This document shows, piece by piece, positions 26,228 to 26,460 of a stretch of DNA of 64,000 nt. The translations under genes and the position numbers were made by a program. The stretch is from Torpedo marmorata. Taxonomy: Eukaryota. Each line of letters begins with the position of its first letter. Position 1 is the first letter of the stretch. A model generated the notes under the pieces. That model was not told the DNA's origin and made no database searches. It worked only from the letters and a program-made list of their open reading frames with translations. The DNA is taken from assembly GCA_977017645.1 (NCBI GenBank), contig OZ360230.1, forward strand, positions 74,090,001 through 74,154,000, given 5' to 3'.

Positions 26228-26460
26228 TGTCAACGCCTTTAGGTCAAGGGAGAGTGAACCAGCTCGGAGGAGTTTTTATTAACGGCCGGCCTCTGCCAAA
26301 TCATATCAGGCACAAGATAGTGGAAATGGCCCATCACGGCATCCGACCTTGTGTCATCTCCCGACAGCTGAGGGTCTCCCACGGTTGTGTCTCTAAAATC
26401 CTCTGCAGATACCAGGAGACGGGATCTATCAGGCCAGGGGCGACTGGAAGCAAACCTAGG
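26228..26460 (+). CDS. pax3: Pax-3 exon 2 (paired domain PAI subdomain and linker)
   Basis: TAG acceptor; [84 protein letters not shown] donor; 233 nt. Confidence 0.95.

Follow-up and report, generated by a model that had tools for sequence, protein, structure and literature searches.

A one-residue shorter linker core in the paired domain of elasmobranch Pax3 and its putative compensation by a fixed splice form

Pax3 of Torpedo marmorata has a paired-domain linker whose core is one residue shorter than the canonical core. Judged from the sequences, this indel is paired in elasmobranch Pax3 with a fixed splice form, and the two together restore the length of the linker. The functional effect is putative.

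The short linker core of Torpedo Pax3

The window, i.e. the whole stretch of 64,000 nt that was analysed, contained the following Pax3 features.

25292..25379, plus strand: coding exon 1, 88 nt, spliced to exon 2 in 4/4 runs
26228..26460, plus strand: exon 2, 233 nt, bounded by AG and GT; encodes the PAI subdomain and the start of the PAI-RED linker
26437..26460, plus strand: shortened linker core GATGSKPR (canonical form G-[AV]-I-G-G-S-K-P-[RK])
27959..27964, plus strand: exon-3 acceptor AAG/CAA, single, with Gln codon CAA
27962..28091, plus strand: exon 3, 130 nt; remaining linker (QMTIP) and RED subdomain helices
28609..28743, plus strand: exon 4, 135 nt; end of the RED subdomain and octapeptide HSIDGILA

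Exons 1-4 formed one open frame. Exons 5-8, which encode the homeodomain and the C-terminus, lie beyond the window, downstream on contig C42 (G000). They matched elasmobranch Pax3 (P0141), and no stops were present within the matched stretches.

The linker core was read as GGG GCG ACT GGA AGC AAA CCT AGG (26437-26460), followed by the GT donor. The initial annotation had reported GATGSKP instead of GAIGGSKP in a 233-nt exon 2; the GATGSKP motif and the exon length were both read here directly. The five-residue core x-x-I-G-G that precedes SKP was absent, GATG being four residues. Exon 2 of the Pax7 paralog in the same genome was 236 nt long, versus the 233 nt of Pax3. Alignment with the solved paired domains matched in the PDB (1pdn, 1k78, 2k27 and 6pax) left a one-residue gap at the Pax3 linker against all four.

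Positions 1-67 of the paired domain, numbered from GQGRVNQ, were the same as in mammalian Pax3 of chimpanzee (P0108) and bat (P0120). The PAI subdomain had been described as otherwise identical to human; this held in our comparison, which was made with these two mammals, but the residue after SKP was R, as in Pax7, and not the K of bony-vertebrate Pax3.

Enumeration of the paths that lead from codons for canonical A-I-G-G-S to the bases seen here gave a 3-nt deletion and at least one substitution. No deletion path worked without a substitution, and 22 worked with one, via AIGS or ASGS. Of the proposed one-codon deletion with an I-to-T change, the in-frame loss with at least one substitution was borne out, but the identity of the lost residue was not: the sequence fits the loss of I68, G69 or G70, and which one it was cannot be told.

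The change extended into exon 3, where QM[A/T]IP was found versus QVTTP. The substitutions after Gln (M, A/T and I, replacing V, T and T) were near-fixed in elasmobranch Pax3.

The paired domain (PF00292) was detected by Pfam in exon 2 with an E value of 9.9e-43. In P0141 from Narcine, whose paired domain is the same as that of Torpedo Pax3, the E value was 1.7e-70. The other 24 elasmobranch proteins with exon 3 were 1-2 residues off the Torpedo paired domain. Matches of the paired-domain fold were 1pdn, 6pax and 1k78. The 6.2-Gb genome contained two Pax3/7 loci, C42 and C60; the exons of C42 matched P0138 at 86-96%, and those of the C60 locus at 62-97%. In a tree built from 25 proteins, the Torpedo window protein not among them, the nine elasmobranch orthologues formed a single clade (99/98). 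The tree split Pax3 from Pax7 (100/100), and this clade fell with Pax3. The window gene is a single, intact, expressed Pax3 of an elasmobranch.

This gene is like vertebrate Pax3, a group III paired-box gene (PF00292, octapeptide and homeodomain PF00046), in exon layout. PAI positions 1-67, the octapeptide, the homeodomain (identical in elasmobranch and bony-vertebrate Pax3) and the tree position all agree as well. The linker, on the other hand, differs: vertebrate Pax3 has a core of five residues with KQVTTP downstream, and elasmobranch Pax3 a core of four with RQM[A/T]IP. Exon 1 also encodes one residue more, just before the paired domain, than in mammalian Pax3. This extra residue was common to the elasmobranch orthologues with a full N-terminus, and the residue itself varied.

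Occurrence among elasmobranchs and other Pax proteins

The exon-2 query matched three clusters with 100% identity; each bears the name Pax3b and comes from sharks or rays. Our sample was the 26 listed members of the 99 in these clusters, from 15 named species. It spanned catsharks, carpet sharks, a houndshark, a sevengill shark, skates, stingrays, a devil ray, a sawfish and an electric ray. The short core was present in all 26, and the exon-2 part of the paired domain was identical throughout. The variant had been called unusual in an otherwise frozen domain; it is common to every elasmobranch Pax3 sampled, and it comes with the changes in exon 3.

The other Pax proteins compared numbered 427. 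The five-residue core was found in 417 of them, the remaining 10 had no match to the motif, and the short core occurred in none. The 417 non-elasmobranch linker cores showed no indel. In the Torpedo genome, the eight other paired-box loci all kept IGG. The conservation of G-x-I-G-G-S-K-P across Pax classes, cited earlier as established, was supported by these counts.

IGG was also kept in lamprey and amphioxus, and the short core is therefore derived. Its presence in both sharks and batoids suggested that the change is older than their split, which took place roughly 270-300 million years ago. The core residue would thus have been lost in the shark-ray ancestor.

An alignment of shark, ray and chimaera Pax3 had been recommended. 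The sharks and rays gave the short core in 26/26, but no holocephalan Pax3 was among the matches listed in the homolog searches and clusters, in which 73 members of the 88-member cluster, perhaps with a chimaera sequence among them, were unlisted. A Callorhinchus Pax3 is on record in the accessible part of PMC3759438; the linker sequence was not found in the accessible content of four supplements of that paper.

For relatives, 23 exonic differences were listed. Synonymous changes made up 22 of them, including all 13 in exon 2, and the sole nonsynonymous one was E to D in exon 4. Together, the comparisons point to a linker change that is ancient, fixed, expressed and under purifying selection.

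An assembly error, the doubt raised by the initial annotation, would be another explanation of the short core, as would a private allele or a decaying pseudogene. The reads compared all came from runs of other organisms, which leaves an error in this assembly some room. Of four such runs compared at the linker site, DNA contigs of two (X1 and X2) bridged it, with no 3-nt insertion. Exon 2 was free of gaps in the spliced contigs of X10, X15, X17 and X18 (4/4 runs, from four studies). All four joined 26460 to 27962 with GT..AG ends, and this was the only joint. They were judged to be RNA by these joints; one of them is labelled 'probably DNA'. Of the other two runs compared at the site, X3 contained 25 gap letters, not all of which were listed, and the contig of X7 stopped 6 nt before the end of exon 2. 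The same peptide in 15 named species, and a genome with just two Pax3/7 loci and with all exons present, also spoke against an error, a private allele or a pseudogene. Since the short core was present in 26/26 orthologues and in the spliced contigs of 4/4 runs, all from relatives, it is not an assembly error, and we find none of the three explanations credible.

Past the end of exon 1 (from window position 25380), 27 letters of the X7 contig were off the stretch, possibly from an alternative exon or an artefact.

Other departures from the linker motif were seen in passing. Killifish Pax7 (P0298 and P0440), a divergent teleost Pax7, had an independent I-to-T change at the same linker position with no deletion (GATGG). 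In several teleost pax3b duplicates, from cyprinids (P0295-P0299 group, P0302 and P0331), the proline after SK was replaced by serine, which is another relaxation of the linker motif. Locus L017 (G000:C57), which we take to be of the Pax4/6 class, had the divergent linker context VGPKAIGG...RLSTP. Locus L018 (G000:C75), presumably of the Pax2/5/8 class, had IMPG in place of the IKPG or IRPG found in others.

A literal literature search for the short linker motif gave no match, and no title or start of an abstract listed in searches by topic described it, with subscription journals and alignments in figures lying beyond its reach. The short-core sequences are already in public annotations, and the motif may have been noticed in print before.

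The exon-3 glutamine and the length of the linker

Alternative splicing at intron 2/exon 3 of Pax3 and Pax7 includes or skips a glutamine, according to the accessible part of PMC5852603 (citing Vogan 1996). In the same text, the Q- form of mouse Pax3 binds two-subdomain sites more strongly than Q+ (also citing Vogan 1996), Q+ exceeds Q- by about 2:1 in mouse Pax3, and Q+ is the only form of zebrafish Pax7.

The Gln codon of Torpedo Pax3 is CAA, and the exon-3 acceptor is therefore not a tandem NAGNAG. The Pax7 paralog, on the other hand, has AAG/CAG. The next in-frame AG was 30 nt downstream of the Pax3 acceptor. No alternative in-frame acceptor or GT donor that would restore the lost residue was found near the junction.

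The CAA acceptor was read in the Torpedo genome only; relatives were judged by contigs and annotated proteins, in which rare isoforms are lost. On this basis, all 25 elasmobranch Pax3 proteins with exon 3 were Q+. Their linker, counted from the glycine of the core up to the proline that precedes helix 4, was 13 residues long. Bony Pax3-like proteins were Q+ in 109 cases (14 residues) and Q- in 37 (13 residues). The Torpedo linker thus had the canonical (Q-) length, and a 12-residue linker was present in none of the proteins examined. The absence of Q- gave a Fisher p of 0.003, which is not a valid probability, related isoforms having been counted as independent.

A one-residue deletion combined with an obligatory Gln therefore produces a linker of 13 residues, with no net shortening relative to Q-. 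Owing to this equal length, the elasmobranch paired domain aligned without gaps to Q- Pax3. Compared with the Q- form, the stretch from PAI to SKP was one residue shorter, and that from SKP to RED one residue longer.

The Q+/Q- isoforms resemble the elasmobranch case in that the PAI-RED length changes by one residue at nearly the same place. They differ in how the length is set. In the isoforms it is by alternative splicing downstream of SKP, whereas elasmobranch Pax3 combines a genomic deletion upstream of SKP with a fixed Gln. The elasmobranch change is constitutive, and it alters contact residues.

Elasmobranch Pax7 was Q+ in 5/5 proteins, despite the tandem acceptor in Torpedo Pax7 (L011, G000:C60). 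A Pax7-like contig end in X15 was also Q+.

Predicted effects on DNA binding

The linker had been placed in the minor groove of DNA, and for PAX6 this is supported by the accessible parts of PMC2649307 and PMC4330359. In these and in the accessible part of PMC7046147, Gly72 and Ser74 of the PAX6 linker contact bases. The 6pax alignment equated these two residues with paired-domain positions 69 and 71.

We propose that the deletion is compensated. The Ser-Lys-Pro anchor would lie one residue nearer PAI, and ahead of RED helix 4 the fixed Gln would make good the missing length. The PAI-RED distance would be kept, and the residues reading the central bases would be altered. Loss of the second acceptor would block a 12-residue form. 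The deletion and the fixed Gln may be selectively coupled, because skipping of Gln would now yield a 12-residue linker. The predicted bipartite site would be normally spaced, and at its central bases, which the linker reads, the preference would be altered or less strict.

We give this reading, in which the 13-residue length likely keeps the PAI-RED spacing, with Q+-only splicing and a predicted change of the central minor-groove contacts, an even chance of being right. A preference of elasmobranch Pax3 for different DNA sites, as predicted, is likely. The altered DNA binding that the initial annotation expected is thus plausible, although substitutions in the PAX6 linker can have small effects on affinity. 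The 14-residue Q+ form is well tolerated, and Q- was lost in Pax7 without a deletion; the equal length of 13 residues may therefore be coincidental. AlphaFold2, run with an alignment of 50 sequences, formed the PAI and RED helices. The model was uninformative on the linker, as residues 102-110 had a pLDDT of <50 and the pTM was 0.34.

The PAX6 linker missense variants (G72C/S, G73D, S74G and P76R; accessible parts of PMC7046147 and PMC2649307) fall on the equivalent minor-groove residues. They are substitutions found in heterozygous form in disease, and the losses that they cause depend on the site. The elasmobranch change, on the other hand, is an indel fixed in a whole vertebrate group and under purifying selection.

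A serious rival to compensation is fixation of a near-neutral change. The linker would tolerate it, DNA would be bound practically as by other Pax3, and CAA would be unrelated synonymous drift. Such tolerance is suggested by the accessible part of PMC7046147, in which PAX6 linker substitutions shift Kd merely 1.4- to 2.8-fold on the P6B site, and G72C, G73D and S74G are mild there. It is also suggested by the I-to-T change without deletion in the killifish Pax7 proteins, and by skate Pax3, which resembles other Pax3 in being expressed in dermomyotome and fin myoblasts (accessible part of 10.1101/644062). However, in the same part of PMC7046147 the CD19 site is no longer bound by G73D, and linker effects are therefore site-dependent. 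The lack of any indel in the 417 non-elasmobranch cores does not fit a tolerant linker either, nor do the further near-fixed substitutions (V to M, T to A and T to I) that adjoin the deletion. We regard near-neutral fixation as possible, with the chances against it.

A second rival supposes that the short core is unseated from the minor groove, so that RED plays a minor part and binding is mainly by PAI and the homeodomain. The lost or changed residues are indeed the equivalents of PAX6 base contacts (accessible parts of PMC2649307 and PMC4330359), and the segment from PAI helix 3 to SKP is one residue shorter at any total length. Against this, SKP is kept and the total length is canonical. 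RED hardly varies among elasmobranchs, as the 25 proteins that include exon 3 differ at 0-2 of 127 positions, and is therefore arguably still in use. Decoupling of this kind seems improbable to us.

A link between the linker and the weak expression of Met in shark muscle precursors (accessible part of PMC6004694) was considered and dropped, as lamprey lacks this expression too and has an intact linker.

Compensation may also have wider consequences. Elasmobranch Pax3 might have acquired its own DNA-binding specificity through the compensated pair, with the 13- and 14-residue lengths split between Pax3 and Pax7 and with enhancers that co-evolved differently. We advance this only tentatively and think it rather doubtful. 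If true, the two linker lengths that arise by splicing in bony vertebrates would be partitioned between the paralogs, Pax3 always having 13 residues and Pax7 14. The target enhancers of Pax3 in muscle and neural crest would then have co-evolved differently in elasmobranchs.

The I-G-G-S-K-P linker has been conserved in amphioxus, invertebrates and mammals alike, and eye disease results from substitutions in the corresponding stretch of PAX6. An indel in a whole vertebrate group is a natural experiment that sets linker length against linker contacts in paired-domain specificity. Work on the evolution of fin muscle and neural crest uses catshark and skate as standard models, in which Pax3 is assumed to be mouse-like. 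The short core is also a clean candidate for a molecular synapomorphy of elasmobranchs, or of chondrichthyans pending chimaeras.

Mobile-element remains were present upstream of Pax3. On the minus strand, window positions 1067-3144 and 7365-8873 contained fragmented LTR-retrotransposon ORFs, with matches to reverse transcriptase, RNase H and integrase and weak ones to protease. On the plus strand, positions 9123-9935 and 15521-16921 held a 270-aa ORF and a 466-aa reverse transcriptase ORF (PF00078). The 270-aa ORF had no clear Pfam match, and presumably resembles a LINE ORF1. The 466-aa ORF is probably of the LINE type.
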